This document shows positions 569 to 63,046 of a DNA stretch of 64,000 nt, in pieces. The DNA lies in contig CAVSJV010000002.1 in assembly GCA_963728405.1 (NCBI GenBank), positions 96,001 through 160,000 of the forward strand, in the 5' to 3' direction. The stretch's first letter is position 1, and each line of letters opens with the position of its first letter. Under the pieces are notes generated by a model that saw nothing but the letters and a program-made list of their open reading frames with translations, did no database searches and was not told the origin of the DNA. The DNA comes from Methanomassiliicoccaceae archaeon. GTDB taxonomy: Archaea; Thermoplasmatota; Thermoplasmata; Methanomassiliicoccales; Methanomassiliicoccaceae. Position numbers and translations under genes: made by a program.

Positions 569-603
569 TGGATGGTACATCCATCCATAAAAGAATTTAT
601 AAT
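569..603 (+). promoter_or_regulatory. Palindrome TGGATGG-tacat-CCATCCA (569-587) and TATA box TTTATAAT (596-603) of the corrinoid gene
   Basis: Perfect 7-bp inverted repeat 8 nt upstream of a TATA box. The motif recurs at 12021 and 19969. Confidence 0.7.
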
Positions 604-658: not shown

Positions 659-1300
659 ATGAGCAACGAGATACTTGATAAGCTAGCAGATGTCGTAGTT
701 AAGGGAAAGATCAAGGAAGCCAAGCCCCTCGCGGAGCAGGCCTTGGCCGCCGGCGTCGACCCGAAAGTGATCATCTTTGACAGCCTAAGCAAGGCCATGG
801 CCGTTGTAGGACAGAAGTATGAGAGCAAGCAGTACTACCTGCCCCAGGTTCTCCTGTCCGCCCAGACCATGTACCAAGCACTTGATGTCGTCCTCCCCAA
901 GATGAAGGTGGACGCCAAGGTGAAGGCACCTGGAAAGGTCGTTATCGCGGTCGTCGAGGGAGATGTCCACGACATCGGAAAGAACATCGTGAAGGCCATG
1001 TTGACCGGCGCTGGTCTGACCATCTTTGACATGGGCCGTGATGTGCCTGTAAAGAACCTGGTCGAGAAGTGCAAGTCCGAGGGTGCCCAAATCCTTGCAA
1101 CCTCTACCCTGATGACCCCCACCTTGGCGGGTATGAAGGAGATCGAGAGGATCCTGAAGGAGGAGAACCTGAAGGGCAAGATCAAGACCATCATCGGCGG
1201 TGGGGCTACCTCCAAGGAGTTCTCTCAACAGATCGGTTCGGACGCCTGGGCGTACGACGCGGTCGAAGCAGTTTCTGTCGTCGACGGCCTGCTGAAGTAA
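659..1300 (+). CDS. Methyltransferase cognate corrinoid protein (MtaC/MtbC family)
   Basis: GDVHDIGKN B12-binding motif, N-terminal four-helix cap, GGAGG RBS before ATG 659. Confidence 0.92.
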   Translation: MSNEILDKLADVVVKGKIKEAKPLAEQALAAGVDPKVIIFDSLSKAMAVVGQKYESKQYYLPQVLLSAQTMYQALDVVLPKMKVDAKVKAPGKVVIAVVEGDVHDIGKNIVKAMLTGAGLTIFDMGRDVPVKNLVEKCKSEGAQILATSTLMTPTLAGMKEIERILKEENLKGKIKTIIGGGATSKEFSQQIGSDAWAYDAVEAVSVVDGLLK

Positions 1301-8436: not shown

Positions 8437-8685
8437 GGGTCGTATCTCAAAAGGGACATCGGCGCTGTCATTATCCGACGCCGATCCCTCCATTTTCCTT
8501 TTTTAATGTTGCCGAGTGGGGCGAAAAGGGCTTCCTCGAGCATTCCGATGGGGCCGCGGTCGAACCGATTTGATGAATTGTTCTTCGGTAACGATTTAAT
8601 ACAGATTTAGTATATAGTATGAAACGAAGTTCACAAATTAGCCTGCTATCGGTCTGGTTTTGGAACATTGTTGCAAGAGGAAGGC

Positions 8686-9159
8686 ATGGACGATACCGAC
8701 CTGAATATCCTGCAGATCCTTAGGGAAAATTCCCGTGACAGCCTGGGGAAGATCTCAGAGCAGCTGGGAATATCCAAGGCTACGGTCTCCCGTCGTTTGA
8801 CCCGGATGGAACAGGAAGGTTACATTTCTGGCTATTCCATAGCCACCAACCCAGCCCGGTTCGGTCTCATGAAGGGAATTATCTCCCTGCAGGTAGTTGG
8901 CACTGCTGTGAACGGGGTCATCGAGCAGCTCAAAGAGAACAAGGAGATCGAGTCGGTCATGAGGGTGTTTGGTGACCACGGTCTGATCTGCGAGGTGTAT
9001 GCTAGCAGCGTTGACTCCCTCTATGCCCTCATCCAGGATCGGATCTTGAAGATACCTAATGTCCGCAACGTGGAAGTGGACATCGTCATCGATCGTATGT
9101 CCATCAATCCGGATGCCGAGTTCGACATGGCCCGCTCCAAGATCGAAGGGCGGAGTTGA
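8686..9159 (+). CDS. Lrp/AsnC transcriptional regulator
   Basis: MDDTDLNILQILRENSR HTH and a C-terminal RAM domain. Confidence 0.88.
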   Translation: MDDTDLNILQILRENSRDSLGKISEQLGISKATVSRRLTRMEQEGYISGYSIATNPARFGLMKGIISLQVVGTAVNGVIEQLKENKEIESVMRVFGDHGLICEVYASSVDSLYALIQDRILKIPNVRNVEVDIVIDRMSINPDAEFDMARSKIEGRS

Positions 9160-11953: not shown

Positions 11954-12020
11954 AAATTAACCAATGTTAAGAAAAATTGGAACATGCTGGCTACTTTCAA
12001 AAAATCACGATTGTTTACGC

Positions 12021-12054
12021 TGGTTGGATTATCCATCCAGCAGCATGTTTATAT
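12021..12054 (+). promoter_or_regulatory. mcr promoter: palindrome TGGTTGG-attat-CCATCCA (12021-12039) and TATA box TTTATAT (12048-12054)
   Basis: Same motif and same 8-nt spacing to the TATA box as at 569-603. Confidence 0.7.
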
Positions 12055-12196
12055 GCCCTTCTCTACTTACTAGGCTCCGCAAGGGGATTCGATTTTCATC
12101 GTAAGGGTCTAAGCTCAAGCGATGGGAATCAAGAAATATTTAGCTCGGTCGGGGGGACTCTGCCGGGTGAGGAAAAGATATCAAGGAGGTAGAAAT

Positions 12197-13516
12197 TTGG
12201 CGAAATACAAGGACAAGATAGACTTGTACGACGACCGGGGTAAGCTCATCGAGAAGGATGTACCCCTCGAGGCTATTAGCCCGTTGAACAACCCCGCCGT
12301 ACAGAAGATTGCATCCTTGGCTAAGAGGACCATCGCCGTGGACATGACCGGACTTGAGAAGTCTCTCAAGAGCGGACGTGTCGGCGGTGGCTACATCAAG
12401 GGCAAGGAGATCAACGCCGATGTCGTCGCGAACGCAGAGAAGCTCGCGAAGAGGGTCCGGGATATCCTGAAGGTCGAAAAGGATGATGACACTGATGTAA
12501 GGGTCATCATGGAAGGGAAGAGGATGATCGTCATCGTTCCCTCCGGTAGACTCGACGCCGGTGTTGAATACACCACCGGTTTCACCGCTGCAGCCGCTGC
12601 GGTCACCCAGGCCGTCATTGACGAATTCGACGTAGACATGTTCCGCGCGAACATGGTAAAGGGTGCTGTTTGGGGCAGATATCCCCAGAGTTTGAACTTC
12701 CTGGGAGCTAACCTGAAGTCCATTCTCGAAGTGCCGCAGAACAACGAAGGCGCCGGTTATGCCCTGAGAAATATCATGGCGAACCACCTGGTTGCTCTGT
12801 CGAGCAAGAATTCGATGAACGCAGCTGCTCTATCCTCGATCTTTGAGCAGACCGCTATGTTCGAGCTCGGTGACGCTGTCGGGCCGTTCGAGAGGTACCA
12901 CCTCTTGGGCCTAGCCTACCAGGGACTGAACGCGAACAACATGGTCGTTGACCTCGTAAAGGAGAATGGCAAGACCGGAACCGTCGGCACTGTCGTCGAG
13001 TCCCTGGTCTCCCGTGCCATCGAAGACAAGGTCATCAAGGTCAAGGAGAAGCTGCCGTCCGGATACAAGGTGTACACCACCAACGACTTCCCGTTGTGGA
13101 ACGCGTACGCTGCGGCCGGTATGCTTGCTGCCAACATGGTCAACATTGGTGCCGCCAGGGCTTCCCAGGCTGTTCCTGCGACCATCCTGTACTATAACGA
13201 CCTGCTCGAGCATGAGACTGGACTGCCAAGCGTTGACTTTGGGCGTGCGATGGGTGTTGCCGTCGGTATGTCTTTCTTCAGCCACTCTATCTATGGAGGC
13301 GGCGGGCCTGGTCTGTTCCACGGTAACCACGTCGTGACCAAGCACTCCAAGGGCTTTGTCATCCCGTGTATCGCCGCAGCCTGCTCTCTGGATGCCGGTA
13401 CTCAGATGTTCTCCCCGGAGAACACCTCGTCCCTCGTTAGGGATGTATTCGGCGACATTCCCGAGTTCAGGGCCCCGCTGAAGGCCGTCGGTAAGGAGGC
13501 AAAGAAGCTGAAGTAA
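12197..13516 (+). CDS. mcrB: Methyl-coenzyme M reductase subunit beta
   Basis: TTG start after GGAGGT. Contains [11 protein letters not shown] and [13 protein letters not shown]. Confidence 0.98.
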
Positions 13517-13532
13517 GCGGTCTGGTGGCTTG

Positions 13533-13955
13533 ATGAACAGTACTGACAAACCTGAAGCAGTTCCGTTGCCGGAGATTCTAATATTCCCTAACAGGTTGCT
13601 CAAGGCCGAAACGACCGAGACGCTCCTGAACAAGGTATATGAGGTCCCCCACGTAAGGCAGGTCAACATCGCTGGCGAAGGATTGCCGGCAGTGCTTGGC
13701 TCTGGCCCCGGTAAGGGACTTCCGAACGAGCACCCTGAACGCAGGGTAATCACAGTGAAAGGAAAGCAAGTGGAGCTGCGTCTGCTCGTGGGACGGGTGT
13801 TTGTCGAGATCGACGACATTGATCACGTGCAGCAGGCACTGGAGGACATCGAGAAAATTTGTATCGAGGTCCTTCCGTTCGGCTTCAATCTTGAAGTAGG
13901 CCGGTACTCGAAGTACAAGCCAACTGTGACCGATTACGCAAAAGGCAAGAGGTAA
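13533..13955 (+). CDS. mcrD: MCR operon protein D
   Basis: [19 protein letters not shown]...[12 protein letters not shown]; lies between mcrB and mcrG. Confidence 0.95.
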
Positions 13956-13960
13956 TTACT

Positions 13961-14734
13961 ATGGCATACCAGAGACAATTCTATCCCGGATCGAGCCAGG
14001 TCGCCCAGAACAGGCGCCGCTACATGGACCCTTCCCAGAAGCTGAAGAAGCTCAGGGACATCTCCATGGATGACGTCGTTAGGATCATGGGCCACAGGGC
14101 TCCTGGAGAAGATTACAAGAGCATCCACCCGCCACTGGAGGAGGGCAACGAGCCGGATGACCTCATCCGCAAGTTGGTCGTCCCCATCGAGGGTGCAAAG
14201 AAGGGAGACAGAATCAGATACATCCAGTTCACCGACTCGGTGTACTTCGCTCCGATGGTACCGTACCTGAGGGCCTGGATGTACATGACCAGGATGCGCG
14301 GCTTCGACACCGGTACCCTTTCCGGCAGACAGATCATCGAAATGAGGGAGAGGGACCTCGAGAAGGTAGCGAAGGAGCTCATCGACAACGAGACCTTTGA
14401 CCCCGCAAAGACCGGTATCAGAGGCGCCACTGTGCACGGGCACGCCTGCAGGCTTGACGAGAACGGCCTGATGTTCGATGCCTGGCAGAGGTACCGCTGG
14501 AACGCCAAGAAGGGAGAGGTCGAGTACACGAAGGACCAGGTAGCTATCCCACTGGACAAGCCTATCTCTGTAGGCAAGCCACTGTCCGATGCTGACCTGA
14601 AGAAGATGACCACCATCTTCAGAGTAGATGGCGTTGACATGAGGGACGACCCTGAAGTCATGGCCTTAAACCTGAGGATCCACAGGCTCAGGACCCTATG
14701 CGGGTTCCAGTCCTACGCGGTCAAGGGGGAGTAA
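13961..14734 (+). CDS. mcrG: Methyl-coenzyme M reductase subunit gamma
   Basis: [17 protein letters not shown] and [16 protein letters not shown] motifs. Confidence 0.98.
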
Positions 14735-14737
14735 ACA

Positions 14738-16402
14738 ATGGCAAAGGAAAAGGACAAGTTGTTCTTGGACGCAATGAAGAAGAAGTTCAAGGAGGCCCCG
14801 ACTGAGGTCAACACTCACTACTACACCTTTGGTGGCTGGAAGCAGTCCAAGAGGAAGAGAGAGTGGGTTGAGCAGGCCAACAAGATCGCCAAGGCCCGTG
14901 GCATCCCGATGATGAACCAGGACATTGGTGTTCCTCTCGGCCAGCGTGTCTTGATGCCCTACCAGCTGTCTCACACCGACATCTACGCTGAGGCTGATGA
15001 CCTGCACTTCGTCAACAACGCCGCTATGCAGCAGGCGTGGGATGATATCCGCAGGACCGTCATCTCTGGTCTGGACACCGCTCACCAGGTTATCGAGAAG
15101 AGGCTGGGCAAGGAAGTTACTCCTGAGACCATCAACCACTACCTCGAGACCGTGAACCACGCTATGCCCGGTGGCGCAGTCGTGCAGGAGCACATGGCCG
15201 AGTGCAGCCCCGCCCTAACCGCGGACTGCTATGTGAAGGTCTTCTCCGGCGATGACGAGCTCATCAGCCAGATCGACAAGCGCTTCGTGATCGACATCAA
15301 CAAGGAGTTCCCGAAGGACCAGGCCAAGCAGCTGAAGGACGCTATTGGCAAGTCCCTGTGGCAGAAGGTCGCGTGCCCGACCATCGTCGGCCGTGTCTGC
15401 GACGGCGGTACTATGTCCCGGTGGAGCGCCATGCAGATCTCGATGTCGTTCATCAGCGCGTACCGGCTAGCTGCCGGTGAGGCCGCCATCGCGGACTTCG
15501 CCTTCGCTGCCAAGCACGCGTCGGTCGTAGAGATGGGTACCATGATGCCCGCCAGGCGTGCACGTGGCCCCAACGAGCCCGGTGGAATTCCATTCGGGTT
15601 CCTGGCCGATATGGTCCAGTCCTACCGTACCCACCCTGACGACCCTGGCAGGGCTGCCCTGGAAACCGTCGCTCTCGGCGCGGTCATCCTGGACCAGATC
15701 TACCTCGGGTCGTACATGTCCGGCGGTGTCGGATTCACCCAGTACGCTACTGCGGCCTACACCGACGACATCCTGGAAGACTACACCTACTGGGCCCTTG
15801 ACCTGATCAAGACCAAGTATGGTGGGCTGTGCAAGAGCAAGCCTTCCATGGAACTGATGGACAAGCTCGGAACTGAGGTCAACTCCTATGCGCTGGAAAT
15901 GTATGAGAGGTACCCGTCTGCGATGGAAGCCCACTTCGGTGGCTCCCAGCGTGCGACCGTTGCCGCCGCCGCCACTGGTATCGCTTGCGCGATGGCCACT
16001 GGTAACGCCGACTTCGGTGTCAACGGCTGGTATCTGTCAATGATGCAGCACAAGGAAAGGCACGGCCGCCTAGGCTTCTACGGGTACGACCTGCAGGACC
16101 AATGCGGTGCAGCCAACTCGTTCTCCTACAGGAGCGACGAGGGCCTGCCCTTCGAGCTCAGGGGCCCGAACTACCCCAACTACGCCATGAACGTCGGTCA
16201 CCTGTCCGGATACGCCGGCATAGCGGCAGCCTCTCACGCGGCCCGCGGCGACGCTTTCGCCTGCAGCCCGCTGATCAAGGTCGCCTTCGCCGACAAGAAC
16301 ATGCCGTTCGACTTCGGAAACATCACGAAGGAGTTCGGCCGTGGCGCCCTCAGGGAGTTCATGCCTGCTGGCGAAAGGTCCGTAATCATCCCCGCTCAGT
16401 GA
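14738..16402 (+). CDS. mcrA: Methyl-coenzyme M reductase subunit alpha
   Basis: [53 protein letters not shown] and NYAMNVGH motifs. Confidence 0.99.
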
Positions 16403-16406
16403 GCCC

Positions 16407-16685
16407 ATGATCGTCGGTGACATCGTAAAGTACAGAAACACCGGGACGGTAGGAAAGATAGTGGAAATCATGGAAGAAGGAAAGGTGGTCTGGGCACTCC
16501 TGGACACCTCAAACCTCTTCTATGATTCGACCGCTCTCGATCTGGCCAATCCGGACGAGTACCACGGTGCCGCCGAACGTGAAAAGGGCTTGAGGGACCA
16601 ACTGGAGGACATCAACCGTCTCCGCGAGGAAATGGCGGAGATGGCCGAAAAAGCCTCCAAGATAACTCCCTCAGGCGCGGGTTAG
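16407..16685 (+). CDS. Small methanogen protein, DUF2098-like
   Basis: VGDIVKYRNTGTVGKI...WALLD pattern; directly after mcrA. Confidence 0.7.
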   Translation: MIVGDIVKYRNTGTVGKIVEIMEEGKVVWALLDTSNLFYDSTALDLANPDEYHGAAEREKGLRDQLEDINRLREEMAEMAEKASKITPSGAG

Positions 16686-18981: not shown

Positions 18982-19959
18982 CTAGTAGCCGGTCTGGTCC
19001 TTTCTAGTGCGGGAGATCATCTCGAACATACCGCCTTTAGTGATGTCCACGATGCCGAACACGGCCACCGCCTCCTTCTTTCTGATGATCGGTACGACCA
19101 CCACTGGTACGCCACGATACGGTCCGGAAGGTGATATCTTCCTGATCACCATGCTTTTCTTCAGCGATTCCTCGAGGACCGGGCCCGTGTAGTTGGTGTC
19201 TAACACCTCGCCATCCTCGCACCTGACCCCGTAGTTGTTCTTGCTTCGCATAGTGACCGGGAGTCTTCCGACCAGTTCGTGGACTGCCAGCGCAAGGCAC
19301 TTTAGGTCCTCGGCCTCGGTGTCAGGGCTTATTAGGCCCGATGGAGAGCCCTCCTTCCAGCAGGGTTTGGACTGATCGCTCAGAGAGAGGCCAGCTGTGA
19401 CCGCCCCTTTCTCGGCGACCTCGTATGAGTTCGCCGTCCCGATGATCACCACATCGTTCTCCTCGATGGAGAAGGCCGAGCGGATGGGTGCCAACCTGAC
19501 CTGGTCCGGTTCGGCCTTGTCGCCGGGAAAGAAGAGCTTGCCGTTCTTGGCTATAAGGGTGGTCGCCCCGACCGCCCCGGCCCGAACAGCCTCGTCCCTT
19601 TGCTCATAGCCCGTCCCGATCCGGTCGGCCATTCCTTTGACCAGGACCGCACAATCCTGAGTGGATATCGTAAGGCCTTCGATCTTTACAGGGGCGGCGG
19701 TGATGCCAGAAGTACGGAACTGTTTGATTCCCCGGTCGGTGAGCACGGCGCCCAGCTTAGTGTTCTCCACCGAACCCTCTCGGATCATCTTATCCAGGAT
19801 GGTTCGGGTGCTTCCTTCGCCGATCCCCAATGTCTGGGACAGGGCCTTGCGGCCTATCGGTCCCTTTTCATTGATGATGTCGTAGGTCTTCCAAACGTGG
19901 AACAAGGAGAACTTGGGGGTAGGCCCCCCTCCAGAATAGGCCTGGAACTTAAGAACCAT
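18982..19959 (-). CDS. Putative transcription factor: winged-HTH + DUF4443-like + DUF2111-like domains
   Basis: GPIGRKALSQTLGIGEGSTRTIL wHTH; QRDEAVRAGAVGATT; C-terminal LPVTMRS...YTGPVLEE...GPYRGVPVVV...GIVD. Confidence 0.75.
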   Translation of the reverse strand: MVLKFQAYSGGGPTPKFSLFHVWKTYDIINEKGPIGRKALSQTLGIGEGSTRTILDKMIREGSVENTKLGAVLTDRGIKQFRTSGITAAPVKIEGLTISTQDCAVLVKGMADRIGTGYEQRDEAVRAGAVGATTLIAKNGKLFFPGDKAEPDQVRLAPIRSAFSIEENDVVIIGTANSYEVAEKGAVTAGLSLSDQSKPCWKEGSPSGLISPDTEAEDLKCLALAVHELVGRLPVTMRSKNNYGVRCEDGEVLDTNYTGPVLEESLKKSMVIRKISPSGPYRGVPVVVVPIIRKKEAVAVFGIVDITKGGMFEMISRTRKDQTGY

Positions 19960-19968
19960 CTAGGGGGT

Positions 19969-19999
19969 TGGATGGTCTATCCATCCTATATCCTTTTCG
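19969..19999 (-). promoter_or_regulatory. Palindrome TGGATGG-tctat-CCATCCT (19969-19987) abutting the BRE/TATA-like element of the wHTH gene
   Basis: Minus strand reads CGAAAA-GGATATAG, then the palindrome, then ATG 19959. Confidence 0.65.
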
Positions 20000-20080
20000 C
20001 CAAGTTCCACACATGGCCTATATGGTGTCGTATATAATGGGGGAAGACTATATACTGTTAATAAAGGATGTCGGGATGTT

Positions 20081-21706
20081 ATGACTGAGTCATCGGATGC
20101 ATTCGTAATTATTCTCAATGTCAGTAAAAAATTCGGCGGCTCTTACGCTCTAAGGGATGTGAGCGCCACCATCAGGTCCGGAGAGATACTCGGGCTCATA
20201 GGACGTAGTGGTGCGGGCAAGTCTGTTCTCATCAATATGTTGAGGGGAACCCCTGATTACCGGCCCGACTCTGGCAAGGTCATTTATCGATTCAATTCCT
20301 GCAATGCCTGTGGATGGGTCGAACTCCCCTTCGAGGGAAAGAGATGCGGCAAGTGCGGCCGGGACATGAAAATAAAGGAGGTCGACTTTTGGGCCCTTGA
20401 CGATGAGGACCCCCTCAAGACCCAGATACGGCGGCGCATTGCCATCATGCTGCAGAGGACCTTCGCCCTGTTCGGAGACATGACGGTCATCGAGAACGTA
20501 TTCGAGGCATTGGGCGAGCACATGCCTGAGAAGCAAAAGGTCGACCGGGCGTTGGAATTGCTAAGGATGGTCAAATTGGACCATCGTATCACTCACATCG
20601 CCAGGGACCTGTCGGGCGGAGAGAAACAGAGATGTGTCCTGGCACGACAACTGGCCAAGGATCCCATATTGTTCCTGGCCGACGAACCTACCGGAACTCT
20701 AGATCCTCAGACGGCCGACATCGTGCACCAGGTGCTTATCGATTCGGTGAAGAAGAGTGGCATGGCCATGGTCGTGACCTCACACTGGCCTAAGGCCATC
20801 AACACCATGGCCGATCGGGCGGTGTGGCTGGAATCGGGCGAGATGATGAAGATCGGGAAGCCTGTTGATGTCACCACCGAGTTCATGGTGGGTTTCGACC
20901 CTAGGACCGAGGACCATGTCGATATAGGTCAACCGCTAGTAAAGATCGAGGACGTCAAGCGTTACTATTATTCTTACACGAGGGGTGTAGTGAAGGCCGT
21001 CGATGGCGTTTCCATCGAGGTTGGGGAGAAAGAGATAGTAGGTCTGGTCGGGCTGTCCGGCGCGGGTAAGACGACAATCTCGCGTATGATCGCTGGGATA
21101 TGCGAACCATCCGATGGCAAGATATCGGTGCGCATTGGCGACGATTGGGTCAACATGGCCGAGCCAGGCCCGGAAGGGAAAGGGCGAGCGACCCAGTATA
21201 TCGGGATCCTGCATCAGGAGTTCTCCCTATACCCGTTCGATACTATATTGCAAAACCTAACTGTGTGCATCGGGATGAACCTTCCAGCAGAGCTGGCTAA
21301 AATGAAGGTCATCCAGGTGCTCCTAGGGGTCGGCTTTACTCGCCAGGAGGTGGAGCGCATCCTTTACGCTTATCCGGATAATCTGTCAGTGGGGGAGAAA
21401 CAGCGGGTGGCCCTCGCCCAGGTGCTTATACGGGAGCCGCGGATTGTCATTCTGGACGAGCCGACAGGTACCATGGACCCCATTACTAAGTTGTCGGTAG
21501 CGAAGTCCGTTCTCCATGCCCGAAAGGAGCTGGGAGAGACCTTCCTCATAGTATCGCATGACATGGACTTCGTCATCAATTGCTGCGACCGCGCCGCTAT
21601 AATGAAGGACGGCAAGGTCGTCGCGATGGGAGATCCTAAGGGCATCGTCGGACACCTGACCGAAAAGGAATCGGAGATCATGTTGCGAGGCGGTGCGGAG
21701 CAGTGA
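20081..21706 (+). CDS. atwA: MCR activation component A2 (ABC-type ATPase)
   Basis: Two ABC ATPase domains ([16 protein letters not shown]), a CxxC...CxxC zinc insert and [13 protein letters not shown]. Confidence 0.95.
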
Positions 21707-22305
21707 AGGACCAGATCGGCCGGCACATGAGCTTCGTGGAGTGCCGGGAATCGCGCGGTCTCGGCGTGGGGGGCGGTCTCGCTCAACGGGCCACGATCTC
21801 CGAGAGCGGCCGGGATGTCGTCGCGGTGGCCATGGGGCCGGGGAAAAGGCACATCACCAAGCCGGTATGCGAGATCACCTATGCTCTAAGGGAGGAAGGC
21901 ATCGACACAAGCGTCATTGTGGTCAACGCCGGCTCGGGTGTTCCAGCCGATGCCCCGGACGTTAGCACCGGCTCGATCTTTGGTCTTGACCAGATCGAGA
22001 TCGACCGCATACAGCAGTTCAAGATCGCGCTCATACACCTGGGAAATGTGCGCAACCACATCATCTATAAAGCGAGGCTCATTCTGCGCAATGTGGATCT
22101 GCCCGCAGTGGTGGTGTGCCAGGCTCCCGTCGATTTCGAGGACTTCGCCCGCATCGGGGTCAAGACCCGCCTGGTCATGCCTCGCAAGGAGGACATCGCC
22201 ACCAAGGGCACGATCATGGAGATCGTGCCTGGTATAGTGAGGGGGACGACCGCTCCACAGAACAAGCTGGATGAGATCGTCTCCAAGGTCCGCCGCAACC
22301 TGTGA
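21703..22305 (+). CDS. mcrC: MCR operon protein C
   Basis: [28 protein letters not shown] and NAGSGVP motifs. Confidence 0.95.
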
Positions 22306-22311
22306 GCTCTA

Positions 22312-22878
22312 TCACTCGAGGTCGAAGCCTACTAGGTGGGTCCACTGATTGGGAGCAGTATAGCCCATGACCCTACGGACGAGATCATCCGACATGGTAG
22401 AAACACTTCCGGAGGTCACCCTGGTCACCCCGGGAACGTCCTCGATATAGTGGAACTTGATCTCGTCGATCAGGAAGTACGGCTCGCCGGAGATATCGAC
22501 CTCTGGATGCATAAGGAAGTCCTCGGACAGGAATGAGGCCTCGGGGTCCCTCTCCAGGATCTCCACCCTCTGCTCTGGGGTCACATACTCGCCCATGATC
22601 TGCCCCTTCTGGTCCAGCATGAACAGCAGGCCCTTGTTATCGACGAGCAGGTGGGTGTTGCCGACCAGGATGAGACTTACCTCGCGGGCCAGCGCTTCCC
22701 AGACGCCCTTGTTCACGAAGGGCATGAGCCCGGCACAGGCACCGTTCTTCTCGGCCAGTATCTCCAGTCGAGTGATCTCCTCCTTGAGGTCGGGGTCGAG
22801 GAACCTCATGTCCTCGACACCGGGGATCTCGCGCACCCTCTTCTCCACTTCGGCCAGGACTGTCTGTCGGTCCATCAT
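22312..22878 (-). CDS. Uncharacterized protein, paralog of 17579-18136
   Basis: Colinear similarity to the 17579 ORF; divergent from marker 3. Confidence 0.75.
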   Translation of the reverse strand: MMDRQTVLAEVEKRVREIPGVEDMRFLDPDLKEEITRLEILAEKNGACAGLMPFVNKGVWEALAREVSLILVGNTHLLVDNKGLLFMLDQKGQIMGEYVTPEQRVEILERDPEASFLSEDFLMHPEVDISGEPYFLIDEIKFHYIEDVPGVTRVTSGSVSTMSDDLVRRVMGYTAPNQWTHLVGFDLE

Positions 22879-23011
22879 ACCCTCTTCCGCATATGCATTG
22901 AGCTGCCGAGATTTTATTGTTGTGACAGTTGGACCCAACATCCCAGAGCTGCCAGGTAGTTACACCGGGAGAAAGGATAATAACTCCATTGTGCTTTCAG
23001 AAAATGACCAG

Positions 23012-24750
23012 ATGTTGCTGACAGTCAATGGGAAAGAGAAGAACATCGAGACGGGGGCTCGGCTTTCTGAAGCTATCAATGGCGAGCCGTACAATGCCGG
23101 TGCGCTCATCGCCGTCACTCGTTCCACCAGCTCGATGCAAAAGGAGACCAGCGAGTTCGAGATCGTCACCTTAAAAGGCGCGTTTGTCATCCGTCTCAAT
23201 GATTCCGAGTTTGCCAAGAGCTGGCGGGAGCTCATTCCCCAAATAGTGGGCAGCGGGGTCCGCTGGCAGAGCACCAAGGTGGTGGCGGTCGGCTCGTTCC
23301 CCTCGTCCCTGGAAGTAGATAGGGGCCGTTACCGTTACTCAAGGTACGATTGCTTCTTCGCCCTGGGGGGCTTCGACAATCGCTCCACCTACATGATGAT
23401 GGCCAAGATCGATCACGAGGCCGGTTATGGTGTCAAGGACGGCCGCTTCGGACGGGTCACCCGAGGCCGTCACATCCTGAAGGAGATCGAAGAGGGCGAG
23501 AGGATAGAGGCCATCCGGCCAGTGGTGCTCGAACTGTCCGAGAAGGATGCCTTCGTCACCACGGACCTTGATCTCGTGCTGGAGGAAGGCATGTCCGTCG
23601 ACACCTGCGTGCAGGTCGCCCTGGACCACCGGTCCCCGGTCAGCTGCGAGCAGTTCCTGGTCATCACCAATGGCAACCGGTTCAACATCACTGATCGCAC
23701 CGCAACCTATTCGGCCAACTCCGAACGCATGGATGTGTCGCTCATCCCTGAGCACGTCGAGGTGCGGGAAGATGGGACATGACCGTCCGTCACGGCGGTT
23801 CCTTCACCGGACGGGTCTACCTTTACCGCAAGCGACGGCAGCTGTCCCAAGCCCACAATCTGGTCGGCAAGATAACTGCGGGAATGGAACTGGTCCGACT
23901 CGCTCCCCAGGGTTCGTTCATCACTCTCATCAACACCCCCTCGAGGATCATGTCCATCGGCATGACCCAGAAGGAGGCCGGGGCCTTCCTGGAAGCGAGG
24001 GGATTGAAGCAGAGGAGGACCGGGCAGGTCGACGACCTGGCGCTGGTGGCGGAGCAGGAACCCGAGCTGACCATGGAGATCAAGGACGGCGAGGAGGTCG
24101 AGACGTTCGGCGTGCTGCCTGAAAAAGTCTCGGTCTGGGAGTTCGATGATGAACGCTCGTCCCGCACCTCTCACTATGTCCGCAAGATGACCGGACTGGA
24201 CCACAAGCCCATCGGCACGATGAAGGTGTTCTTCACTTTCCAGGACATGCCCATGATCACCTTCGAGGGGAATCCCAGGGAGGCTTCGGTCCTGTTACCG
24301 GAGAATCCCTTCGAGGACGAGTCGCCGCGCGGGCAGGTCGGTGTCACCAACATGTCCCGTCCTAATCGGGGAACCATCGGCATACGCCTGGAAGCGAGTC
24401 CAGAGTTCGGTCCGACCGGGGAAGAGCGCTACGGTACCAATGCTGTAGGCAGAGTGGTATCGGACATCGACACCATGTTGCGCGGGGTAAAGGACGGTGA
24501 CATCATCTACCTGCGAGAGCGGATGGCCGGAGAACAGTTCATGGCTACCGCTCCCGCCAAGAGGCCGGAACTTACCATGGACGAGATCACCGAGATCGCC
24601 CGACGGGCCGAGTTCATGGAACATGCCCCGCCCACCGGACCGTTCCAAGGGGCGGCCAGCGAGACCGGGGAGAGGCAGAAGGCCAATAGGCCGGCCCAGA
24701 AGAGGACCACGGGGGGAAGACCACGAGCGAAGAAACCGAAACAAGAATGA
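23012..24750 (+). CDS. Methanogenesis marker protein 3 (frameshift at ~23778)
   Basis: GRVYLYRKRR, GVTNMSR..RG.IGIRL....FGPTGE....TN..G motifs; first gene of the marker operon. Confidence 0.88.
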
Positions 24751-25148
24751 TCGTGATCGCACCCAGTTCCGAGCTCGCGCCGGACCAGGTGTCAAGATTC
24801 ATCCATTCACTGGGCCTGGACCTGAAAGTCAAAGAGACCTGCTATGGGGCGAACATCGAGGGACCTCGGGACCAGGTAAGAAAGGCGATGGTCGAGGTGC
24901 GCAAGCTGGACCCCAACCGGATATTCACCAAGATCCGGGCCTTCCCCATCGGCGACGAGCGTAGATGCCGGGCCCATCATGGATCGAGACCGGGATTCCC
25001 GCAACTGGAGAAGGAGTGGAAGGACCTGTCGCTTATCGATAAGGGACTGTGCGCGGCGGACTGTGGCGAGGTTTGCGTCGAGCGGCCCAAGCCCGAGAGG
25101 CTGCCGATCAAGAGGCTTCAGGAGATAGTCGACGAGGTGATGAGATGA
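24747..25148 (+). CDS. Methanogenesis marker protein 6
   Basis: VKETCYGA.IEG, DPNRIFTK.R.FPIGD.RRCRA and RPGF.QLE.E motifs. Confidence 0.9.
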   Translation: MIVIAPSSELAPDQVSRFIHSLGLDLKVKETCYGANIEGPRDQVRKAMVEVRKLDPNRIFTKIRAFPIGDERRCRAHHGSRPGFPQLEKEWKDLSLIDKGLCAADCGEVCVERPKPERLPIKRLQEIVDEVMR

Positions 25149-25579
25149 AAGTGTTCATTGTACCGCCCAACAGTCTGATCCTATACGATCTGGTCGAGCG
25201 CTTCGGCCATGAGCCCCTATCGCTTATGGGCGAGCTGCGTGAGCATGTGGTCAAGCCGGAAGTGGAATCGCCCCCCCTAAATCTGTCCCAGGAGGACATC
25301 ATGAAGGGCTTGAAGTATGCCGGTATCGAGGTACCGTCGGGCGTCCGGGGTCGACTCGCCATATGGGGGCCGTTGGTCGACCAGGCTGAAGCGGCCATCA
25401 TCATGCATGACATGCCATACACCTTCGGATGCGTCGGCTGCCATCGTACCAACCTCATGCTCATGTACCTAGTGCGGAAGAAGAAGATCCCCACCCTGGA
25501 GATACATTACCCCCATGACGAAGAGGAGGCCAAGGTCATGGTCAGCAAGATCAAAGGCTTCTTGGAGGGATTGAAATGA
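25145..25579 (+). CDS. Methanogenesis marker protein 5
   Basis: [34 protein letters not shown] and FGCVGC.RTN motifs. Confidence 0.92.
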
Positions 25580-26808
25580 CCATCAAGATTGCACAATTAT
25601 CGTGCGGAACAGAGTACTCAGGAATCCAGTCGGAGATCGAGCGGGCGGCCTCTACCGTGGGCGGCAAGATGGTCTATCCGGACGTGGCGTTCGATGACAT
25701 CGACCGTTCGGTGGAGGAGTTCGGCTTCGAGCCAGCCTCGCCTCAGCTGAGGATGATGATCGCTCGGGCCAAGGCCCTCGCCGACGGCCACTATGACGCC
25801 GACGCGGTGTTCATCGCCACCTGCTTCCGTTGCGCCGAGGGCGCCCTGGTCAGGAACGAGGTCCGGCGATACATCCAGGAGCACACCAAGCTGCCGGTCG
25901 TTACCTACTCGTTTACGGAGCGGATGAAGGCCGCCCAGTTGTTGACCCGGATGGAGGCCCTGGTGACCATCGTATCCAAGAAGGAGCTGCTGGCGAGGGA
26001 GAGGCAGGTCGGCCTCACCGCCGGCATCGACTCCGGCTCGTCGACCACCAAGGCCATGATCCTTCGGGACAACGAGATCATCGGCAAGGCCTGGACACCC
26101 ACTGGAGATGTGCTGGGAACGGCTATGGAGGTGCTAGAGAAGGCACTGGCCGAGGCCGGGGTCAAGCAGTCGCAGCTCGAGGGAGTTGGTGTCACTGGCT
26201 ACGGGCGGTTCCTTATCGGCAAAAAGATCAATGCCAAGCTGATCCAGGAAGAGCTCACGGTGAACAGCAAGGGAGCGGTTTGGCTCGCCGACAGGCAGAA
26301 AGGAGAGGCGACGATCATCGACATCGGAGGGATGGACAACAAGGCCATCACTGTCCGGGACGGCATCCCGGACAACTTTACCATGGGGGGCATCTGTGCC
26401 GGCGCATCTGGTCGGTTCCTGGAGATGGTCTCCAAGCGGCTGCGGGTGGAGATCGAGAACCTCGGCCCGATGGCCGACAAGGGCGACTGGAGGAAGGTCA
26501 ACATGAACTCCTACTGCTCGGTGTTCGGCATCCAGGACCTGGTGACCTCGCTCGCCGGTGGCTCCACTATGGAGGACGTCGCCGCCGCGGCGTGCCACTC
26601 CGTGGCCGAACAGGTGTATGAGCAGCAGCTGCAGGAGATCGACGTCCGACAGCCGGTAATACAGGTGGGGGGCACTTCGCTCATAAGTGGCCTAGTGACC
26701 GCGGTCGGGGACATGGTTGGGTCGAAACCGATCATCCCGCCACATTCTCAGTACATCGGAGCGGCCGGAGCGAGCCTGCTGGCCTCAGGGTTCCTAGAGG
26801 GGCTGTGA
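25576..26808 (+). CDS. Methanogenesis marker protein 15 (CoA-activase-like ATPase)
   Basis: [30 protein letters not shown] and [15 protein letters not shown] motifs. Confidence 0.92.
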
Positions 26809-62722: not shown

Positions 62723-63046
62723 GCAGGATTTGAGAGGCCGGGTCGAGCCGGCCGACCTGCATCCAATGGTAATCCATCCTAGCCATTATTATTAGTCATA
62801 GGCAGGATCGGTTCCCCTTTACATTATTATCTGTTTATCACTGGGCCATGTGCCGCTTTTTCGATAGCTCTCCATCATTATTACACTGCCCCGGTCTTGT
62901 CCAAGTTTCAAGTACTGACCCGGAGCAAGAACGTGGGACTCATAAAGAGTACCAAATAAGGAGTCGCCAATAATTCCGTTCTCAATGGCCGCCGATGCAT
63001 TGGAAGAAGATTCTTGGCGGTGCTCAAGGCACCGCCATCGATGCGT

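Follow-up and report, generated by a model that had tools for sequence, protein, structure and literature searches.

Winged-helix, one-component regulators whose effect depends on where they bind are known from the Thermococcales, in which the palindromes of SurR and TrmBL1 repress when they lie downstream of or over the TATA box or transcription start site (TSS) and activate when they lie just upstream of the transcription factor B recognition element (BRE). In Methanosarcina the Msr proteins are said, by Bose and Metcalf in 2008, to regulate the methanol methyltransferase genes. The gene considered here comes from the Methanomassiliicoccales, H2-dependent methyl-reducing methanogens of guts and rumen, and adjoins the genes for methyl-coenzyme M reductase (MCR), the enzyme that makes nearly all biogenic methane. 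It occupies positions 18982..19959 on the minus strand of the window, the 64,000-nucleotide stretch of a Methanomassiliicoccaceae archaeon that was analysed (assembly GCA_963728405.1, contig CAVSJV010000002.1, positions 96,001 to 160,000), and its 325-residue product (P0001; open reading frame (ORF) with ATG start) is given the working name REG. Comparison across the order makes it likely that REG binds a dyad, GGATGG-N5-CCATCC, represses its own gene and activates the mcrBDGA operon together with corrinoid-protein and MT2 methyltransferase genes. SurR and TrmBL1 differ from REG in family, motif and signal, and both effects of REG are deduced from the position of its sites. The Msr proteins resemble REG as dedicated regulators of methyltransferase and corrinoid operons in a methylotrophic methanogen, but are of an unrelated family and not reported to control mcr, whereas the predicted regulon of REG joins mcr with methyl-transfer genes. 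A one-component winged-helix factor that has a sensor domain and acts according to the position of its site is nothing unusual in itself; the novelty lies in the protein family, its operator, a regulon centred on mcr and the source of the sensor domain.

A search of the main texts of the literature found no publication on REG or the dyad and none naming DUF2111 or DUF4443, two of the domains of REG, nor did it find a regulator of mcr, or one with a defined operator, described for Methanomassiliicoccales. In the portion of the paper available, Kroeninger et al. 2017 merely postulate 'a regulatory network' (PMC5688252), and the REG gene is not listed in the accessible parts of Borrel et al. 2014, Table 5 included (PMC4153887). 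Close homologues are annotated merely as 'DUF2111 domain-containing protein' or 'predicted transcriptional regulator'.

Three Pfam domains, all encoded on the minus strand and each scoring above its cut-off, make up REG from N to C terminus: a winged helix-turn-helix (wHTH; residues 32-79, 19723..19866; PF22167 PH0730-like_N, 35.8 bits, E 8.8e-9, gathering score 30.2), DUF4443 (residues 99-193, 19381..19665; PF14544, 96.5 bits, E 1e-27, cut-off 27 bits) and DUF2111 (residues 226-307, 19039..19284; PF09884, 114.5 bits, E 2.4e-33, cut-off 27 bits), the last present in this genome as a single copy. No NCBIfam family matched REG, the methanogenesis marker hidden Markov models (TIGR0326x-0329x) included. 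A relative of known structure is PH0730 of Pyrococcus horikoshii (2p8t, 'hypothetical protein'), which matches the N-terminal two thirds of REG (E 1.1e-11 over residues 14-190). In the full-length model of REG (pLDDT 83.9; three domains, with a disordered linker at residues 197-206) residues 16-197 superpose on PH0730 with VIA Z 19.0 and a root-mean-square deviation (rmsd) of 2.8 over 172 aligned residues (Foldseek E 2.7e-10, TMt 0.77). PH0730 is without DUF2111 and without known function or DNA site, whereas REG has a third domain and a candidate operator and regulon; a census of P. furiosus transcription factors mentions PH0730. REG may provide the first functional context for PH0730-like_N, DUF4443 and DUF2111.

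The predicted fold of the wHTH is that of DNA-bound regulators. It matches MarR-family chains with Z 10-11.6 and rmsd 1.3-2.6 over 65-74 aligned residues, and the DNA-binding domain of CggR on its operator (7oyk) with Z 9.9, TMt 0.65 and rmsd 1.1 over 65 columns. The likeness to the CggR/SorC regulators is confined to this N-terminal wHTH (CggR_N E 2.1e-5, below the cut-off; SorC 2o0m E 5.8e-4), and REG is without their sugar-phosphate-binding SorC effector domain. The presumed recognition helix, GEGSTRTILDKM, is kept in orthologues. The model of DUF4443 resembles the AspRS insertion domain (Z 11.9). Structure prediction, which had been proposed as a check together with the suggestion that the C-terminal domain could bind a small molecule, models DUF2111 as a PAS/GAF-like sensor fold, a shared fold that does not show a ligand; the Atlas gives the same lead. 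Folded alone (pLDDT 90.4), the domain found GAF, PAS, Cache, SpoVT_C and IclR-effector domains in nearly all of its top 50 rows, with middling scores (best Z 7.9, for CitA PAS and SpoVT; best Foldseek E 4.9e-4, for Lcd1 GAF). IclR-family and SpoVT-type regulators likewise carry a GAF-like effector domain behind their DNA-binding domain, and the DUF2111 model reaches Z 6-7 against IclR effector domains and Z 7.8-7.9 against the SpoVT C-terminal domain. The full-length model matches IclR proteins with Foldseek E ~2e-4 but poor rmsd, and REG differs from both groups in having DUF4443 in between and no Pfam match to IclR, GAF or SpoVT_C.

The dyad itself was found in the window at 4 places with at most one mismatch, whereas 100 shuffled versions gave 0.60 on average and none of them as many as 4. 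(As a palindrome it is assigned no strand.) In the promoter of REG it is perfect (19970..19986) and lies 10 nt upstream of the ATG (19959), straight after a BRE/TATA-like element (19987..19999, minus strand) that was read from the sequence and whose TATA-like box abuts the dyad in relatives. A second perfect copy (570..586) precedes a corrinoid protein gene with B12-binding and B12-binding_2 domains by Pfam (659..1300, plus strand, ATG at 659), a predicted target, and ends ~10 nt before its TATA; the A-rich BRE/TATA of this gene occupies 587-604 on the plus strand, the TATA being TTTATAAT at 597-604. The copy in the mcrB promoter carries one mismatch (GGTTGG-N5-CCATCC, 12022..12038) and ends ~9 nt before the TATA box TTTATATG (12048..12055, plus strand), which is kept in relatives, REG-less ones included. 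The fourth match (55462), inside an ORF, is probably due to chance. The original prediction had placed the palindrome between the BRE/TATA-like element and the ATG of its own gene, a repressing position, and in an activating position at mcrB and the corrinoid gene; at the positions given it does lie between these elements at REG and upstream of the BRE/TATA at the other two genes.

Only three perfect dyads exist in the entire 2.73-Mb genome, the two in the window and one on contig C17, where it precedes a second corrinoid gene followed by a URO-D methyltransferase gene. Copies with one mismatch were not enriched genome-wide (24 at the N5 spacing, 14-32 at spacings N3-N10); the regulon in this genome is therefore small, and the signal comes from a handful of promoter copies, perfect or nearly so, and from how well these are conserved. 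The extended consensus, (A)TGGATGG-N5-CCATCCA(T), is a palindrome of 17-21 bp, and at promoters of the activated type it abuts the BRE, its centre being 18-19 bp ahead of the TATA box. When a 16-base pattern was allowed as many as 3 mismatches, matches in coding sequence drowned any signal in each of the five genomes searched, and REG-containing and REG-less genomes could not be compared in this way. The shorter form GGATGG-N1-CCATCC was seen at three places in the same genome (G000), and one of them coincides in part with the C17 site, where (GGAT)n repeats move the register by 4. At 62760-62790 of the window a lone ATCCATCC half-site stands beside ATCCAATGG in an AT-rich stretch (CATCCAATGGTAATCCATCCTAGCC) and could be a degenerate site.

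In 41 related genomes the perfect dyad was found 82 times, compared with 1 occurrence of the reversed control. Seventy-five of these sites were listed and classified, a further 7 being unclassified, and 60 of the 75 lie in promoters of the same few genes: REG (14/75), mcrB (15/75, one of them assigned by position only), corrinoid-protein genes (28/75) and URO-D-type MT2 methyltransferases (3/75). Three more of the 75 are in other intergenic regions, and the remaining 12, which lie inside long ORFs and have GC-rich spacers, are taken as chance. The geometry at the targets is constant in the window, on C17 and at 20 relatives' loci, with the dyad followed by an A-rich BRE of ~8-10 nt and then the TATA box; at the corrinoid sites the dyad is followed by an AAAAG-type BRE, a TTTAT-type TATA and, 85-120 nt further on, the ATG. 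At mcrB a dyad is recognisable in 18 of 20 promoters from genomes with REG and in 0 of 3 from genomes without it; G029 has none, and the mcrB promoter of G038 could not be scored. The dyad is almost certainly a real cis-regulatory element of these genes, which on this comparison appear to form a small, coherent regulon of mcrBDGA, corrinoid proteins, MT2 methyltransferases and REG itself. In one genus (g5; L107-L109, L045) the dyad is flanked by a corrinoid gene and, on the other side, by DUF169 in divergent orientation, and DUF169 may be a member of the regulon there.

The candidate factor is nearly universal in the order. A full-length REG orthologue was found in most of the 41 relatives, which span seven families, in 143 of the order's 149 genomes with a completeness of 90% or more, and in 89 of 91 genomes of family f7. 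Among 34 orthologous REG promoters the dyad is perfect in 23 (14 with N5 spacing and 9 with N9), has one mismatch in 2, is variant or degenerate in 6 and was not seen in 2, while 1 promoter could not be assessed. The N9-spaced form (9 genomes) reads GGATGGAT-N5-ATCCATCC. All perfect copies lie 6-11 nt before the ATG and abut the TATA-like box, and in family f7 (5/5 genomes) TATA, dyad and ATG follow one another with almost no spare bases. Archaeal promoters have a TATA-to-TSS distance of ~25 nt. With TATA, dyad and ATG packed this closely, the REG mRNA is expected to be leaderless or nearly so, and the dyad would cover approximately -7 to -23, a repressing position. Where the REG promoter of a lineage has a variant dyad, the wing of its REG and the latter half of the recognition helix differ as well (genus g3, GEGSIRTILNKM; family f7, GEGSTRTILSLL).

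Three congeners of the window's organism (G004, G005 and G008, all 99% complete and the last a single contig) have neither DUF2111 nor a full-length REG, and in them atwA lies ~20 kb from mcr. That gene and motif should occur together had been set beforehand as a refutation test, and the outcome supports the coupling: in all three the dyad is missing at mcrB and at the corrinoid orthologue while the BRE/TATA is kept. Their mcrB is 89-90% identical to that of the window and the TATA region aligns, with the BRE/TATA conserved, but the left half-site has gone, together with a box, TCACGATTGTTTAC, that otherwise precedes the dyad, and just an ATCCAAC remnant is left. Their corrinoid orthologue is 86-88% identical (86-92% across all six genomes compared); its BRE/TATA, ataaaagaNtttataat, is kept in 6/6, with the dyad upstream in 3/3 genomes with REG (G000, G001 and G009) and 0/3 without. 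Being naturally devoid of REG, these congeners lend themselves to transcriptomic comparison. A further genome (G017) has a REG orthologue with one in-frame TAG (C75:126-1091, L079), together with no Lrp orthologue and no perfect dyad; this may be a pseudogene amid loss of the regulon, or the TAG may be read as pyrrolysine.

The following mechanism is consistent with these observations. REG would be a one-component transcription factor of the Methanomassiliicoccales whose N-terminal winged helix, presumably as a dimer, binds (A)TGGATGG-N5-CCATCCA(T), in which the centres of the half-sites are 11 bp from each other. On the REG promoter the dyad takes up all the room from the TATA box to the leaderless or near-leaderless start; bound REG would therefore block recruitment of RNA polymerase, and autorepression is expected. 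Archaeal activators aid the binding of transcription factor B (TFB) and the TATA-binding protein (TBP) from just upstream of the BRE. Since the dyad abuts the BRE, the very position from which such activators work, REG would be expected to activate mcrBDGA and the genes for the methyl-corrinoid protein and the URO-D-type MT2. DUF2111 would adjust DNA binding by REG in response to a small molecule or to the condition of the MCR machinery. The idea of an autorepressed activator, put forward in the original prediction, thus gains comparative support from the layout of the own promoter, that of the targets, the co-loss and the distribution of the Lrp protein discussed below. The outcome is a conserved candidate operator of 17-21 bp, a small regulon and a nearly universal candidate factor, which make the hypothesis directly testable.

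Of the other explanations the one that survives best keeps REG as the binder of the dyad but has it repress everywhere, the signal relieving repression and the BRE-abutting sites hindering TFB/TBP. The site at the REG gene itself is plainly placed for repression. The congeners that lack REG retain the same BRE/TATA and can be presumed to express mcr with no dyad at all, so that activation is not needed for promoter function. However, the target dyads end 8-10 nt upstream of the TATA box and never lie over the TATA or TSS, whereas at REG the dyad is always downstream of the TATA, and two geometries so strictly separated suggest two outcomes, as in the archaeal dual regulators already known. We regard a pure repressor as unlikely, though it deserves more weight than any candidate that replaces REG.

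Much less probable is that the dyad is bound by a shorter paralogue of REG (wHTH-DUF4443 only, ~195 aa). This protein is present in 40 of the 41 genomes searched, and its recognition helix, GEGSMRTIIDHL, resembles that of REG, a resemblance which also tells against assigning the dyad to REG. But the paralogue is retained in the three REG-less congeners, where the mcrB and corrinoid dyads vanished, it is not linked to mcr genes, and the dyad is found in the promoter of REG and is not visible in the paralogue's own upstream region. The one hint in the other direction is the solitary dyad of G005, a genome that has the paralogue but no REG. In G000 the paralogue (36% identity) lies outside the window at C2 ~194100-194750, with AAATTGTTTAT in its upstream region.

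The Lrp/AsnC-family protein encoded upstream of ycaO-tfuA-mcrB (8668-9159; HTH_AsnC and RAM domains) was named in the original prediction as an alternative binder, REG then being merely one of its targets. REG itself has neither HTH_AsnC nor AsnC_trans_reg (RAM) and is not of the Lrp/AsnC family. In many genomes an Lrp orthologue is found in synteny with the mcr cluster, and it is absent from each of the three congeners in which the dyad was lost, as it is from G017, which has no perfect dyad; because it was lost in the same three genomes, the co-loss test alone cannot discriminate between REG and Lrp. The order-wide presence profile does discriminate. The Lrp orthologue (E <= 1e-25) occurs in 72 of the 149 genomes and is absent from 77, against 143 with REG, and whole genera of family f7 are without it (g12, 0/14; g20, 0/5; g22, 0/6; g23, 0/35; g27, 0/9). 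All five Lrp-less, 99%-complete genomes examined (G145, G158, G179, G183 and G230) nevertheless carry the dyad between the TATA-like box and the REG start, in the form TGGATG-N7-CATCCA, which preserves the canonical half-sites and register, and they have further copies near corrinoid-like genes. An extra copy in another Lrp-less genome (G029) precedes a gene without a Pfam family and is uninformative. Nor was a dyad, or any visible conserved motif, seen in the 8 Lrp promoters examined. The persistence of the dyad at REG in genomes without Lrp makes this alternative unlikely, and we give it very little credence. Weakest of all, and scarcely credible, is that REG is an accessory protein of MCR maturation or activation, its wHTH serving for protein contacts and the dyad belonging to another factor: REG adjoins the MCR activation cluster, and a stand-alone DUF2111 gene sits within an mmp6-mmp5-mmp15 cluster in 5/5 Methanofastidiosia-like genomes, but the REG wHTH is closest to DNA-bound MarR and CggR domains, an accessory role hardly explains a dyad in the REG core promoter or the co-loss of gene and motif, and the three congeners without any DUF2111 keep MCR and the A2 gene. 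On comparative grounds REG is the only candidate whose presence tracks the dyad and whose own core promoter contains it.

Several points nevertheless weigh against REG as an autorepressed activator of mcr and methyl-transfer genes. The link between REG and the dyad is comparative throughout, and the TATA and TSS assignments were read from the nucleotides alone. The co-loss in the three congeners is probably one evolutionary event and is counted once, because they are close kin with near-identical promoters, and the event that removed REG and the dyads took Lrp and the TCACGATTGTTTAC box with it. One of the REG-less congeners (G005) keeps a single perfect dyad, arranged as for activation, ahead of a gene that the end of its contig truncates. 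A genome of family f7 in which REG is present (G029) has an mcrB promoter without a recognisable dyad, so that control of mcrB is not universal. The 9 genomes with N9 at the REG site have N5 at their mcrB sites, and a single binding mode does not obviously explain both spacings. Finally, the fold matches of DUF2111 are middling (Z < 8, Foldseek E >= 4.9e-4). The solitary dyad of G005 (L054, C6:1-300) is followed by TTTATAAT, a GGAGG site, an ATG and the contig end, and ~55 nt further upstream are a ACGATTGTT string and a TATCCATCCAT half-site; it may be an orphan operator or a recently acquired promoter.

The presumed sensor domain of REG has relatives elsewhere. In a representative library the three-domain fusion occurs in about a dozen clusters, the other matches being many PH0730-like proteins of 200 aa and stand-alone DUF2111 proteins of 110-140 aa. 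Proteins of the stand-alone kind have the same Pfam domain and 46-53% identity to the REG C-terminus (Atlas feature score 0.96), but are 115-190 aa long and, unlike REG, have no DNA-binding domain. The DUF2111 family is present in M. jannaschii and M. acetivorans and in only 5 of 101 sampled genomes of the Methanofastidiosia-like phylum; in 5/5 Methanofastidiosia-like genomes the stand-alone gene is found between mmp6 and mmp5, followed by mmp15. Loci L143, L144 and L147-L151 show mmp6 (DUF2102), DUF2111, mmp5 (DUF2112), mmp15, mmp17 (DUF2113) and an MCR_C-like gene. DUF2111 is likely to be an unlisted member of the methanogenesis-marker cluster, and is flagged here as one that has probably been overlooked. 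The mmp cluster was recently tied to MCR activation in a report of which part was available, and the MCR activation complex given there comprises McrC, Mmp7, Mmp17, Mmp3, A2 and DUF2098, a member of the last family having co-purified with the complex of M. maripaludis; in the same part DUF2111 is not among the components (PMC12176620).

The place of stand-alone DUF2111 in the mmp cluster suggests that REG may sense something tied to MCR activation. One tentative scenario, which we think more probably wrong than right, is that in the Methanomassiliicoccales DUF2111 left the MCR-activation cluster and was fused to a PH0730-type DNA-binding protein, so as to couple mcrBDGA, the methyl-transfer genes and the level of REG to the activation state of MCR or to a ligand. 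Possible signals would be, for instance, F430, the thiols of coenzymes M and B or their heterodisulfide, a nucleotide or the redox state; Cys247, an invariant residue specific to REG, is a candidate thiol switch. Such a system, if true, would be the first feedback loop dedicated to linking MCR activation with the transcription of mcr. The window itself has mmp6 directly beside mmp5, and DUF2111 does not come between them. A complex prediction for Mmp6, Mmp5 and the DUF2111 of REG, run with no controls, scored 0.00 and has no bearing either way on contact between them. In another genome (G014, L074:865-1719) mmp6 and mmp5 form one ORF of 285 aa, either a natural fusion or a lost stop codon, which is a hint that Mmp6 and Mmp5 work together.

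The dyad of the REG promoter also lies close to atwA, the divergent gene for MCR component A2 (20081..21706, plus strand; TIGR03269, 1.4e-234). The remark in the original prediction that the site is near the atwA TATA box was accurate, the distance being 61 nt from a TATA (20047-20055) placed by alignment with relatives, but general control of atwA was not supported. The same atwA core promoter (ctttatagtgttaa...) occurs without a nearby dyad where REG is not adjacent and in REG-less genomes, and atwA is therefore not counted as a conserved target; its control by the REG dyad is doubtful.

The TCACGATTGTTTAC box (12005..12018, plus strand) lies 3 nt upstream of the mcrB dyad and is kept in the mcrB promoters of genomes with REG and lost in those of genomes without. 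It is not a regulon motif, ACGATTGTT being found 13 times genome-wide against 10 for the reversed control. In more distant families the box reads ATTGTTTA, and throughout the order it keeps its place 3 nt ahead of the dyad at mcrB. ACAATCG-like strings similar to it were seen in some atwA promoters.

The position of the wHTH-DUF4443-DUF2111 gene between mcrA and atwA-mcrC, as first described, is confirmed by the ORF, by Pfam and by the NCBIfam matches of the neighbours (A2, McrC, Mmp3, Mmp6, Mmp5 and Mmp15). REG is flanked by mcrBDGA-DUF2098 (12122-16685) on one side and by the divergent atwA-mcrC-mmp3-mmp6-mmp5-mmp15 (20081-26808) on the other (Pfam, NCBIfam). The upstream order in the window is ycaO (mmp1), tfuA, mcrBDGA and DUF2098, then a CMD-family gene and DUF6951. 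By Pfam the mcrBDGA operon, a predicted target, occupies 12122..16402 on the plus strand, and the DUF2098 gene follows mcrA directly (16407-16685). Translation of mcrB probably starts at a TTG (12197) that follows GGAGG. The order mcrBDGA-DUF2098, CMD, DUF6951, REG and, divergently, atwA-mcrC through to mmp15 is widely retained among relatives. Mmp3 (TIGR03268) is split over two overlapping ORFs, 22457-23782 and 23779-24750, which cover model positions 2-259 and 261-503, and the first carries ~188 extra N-terminal residues without a family match, so that its TTG start may be wrong.

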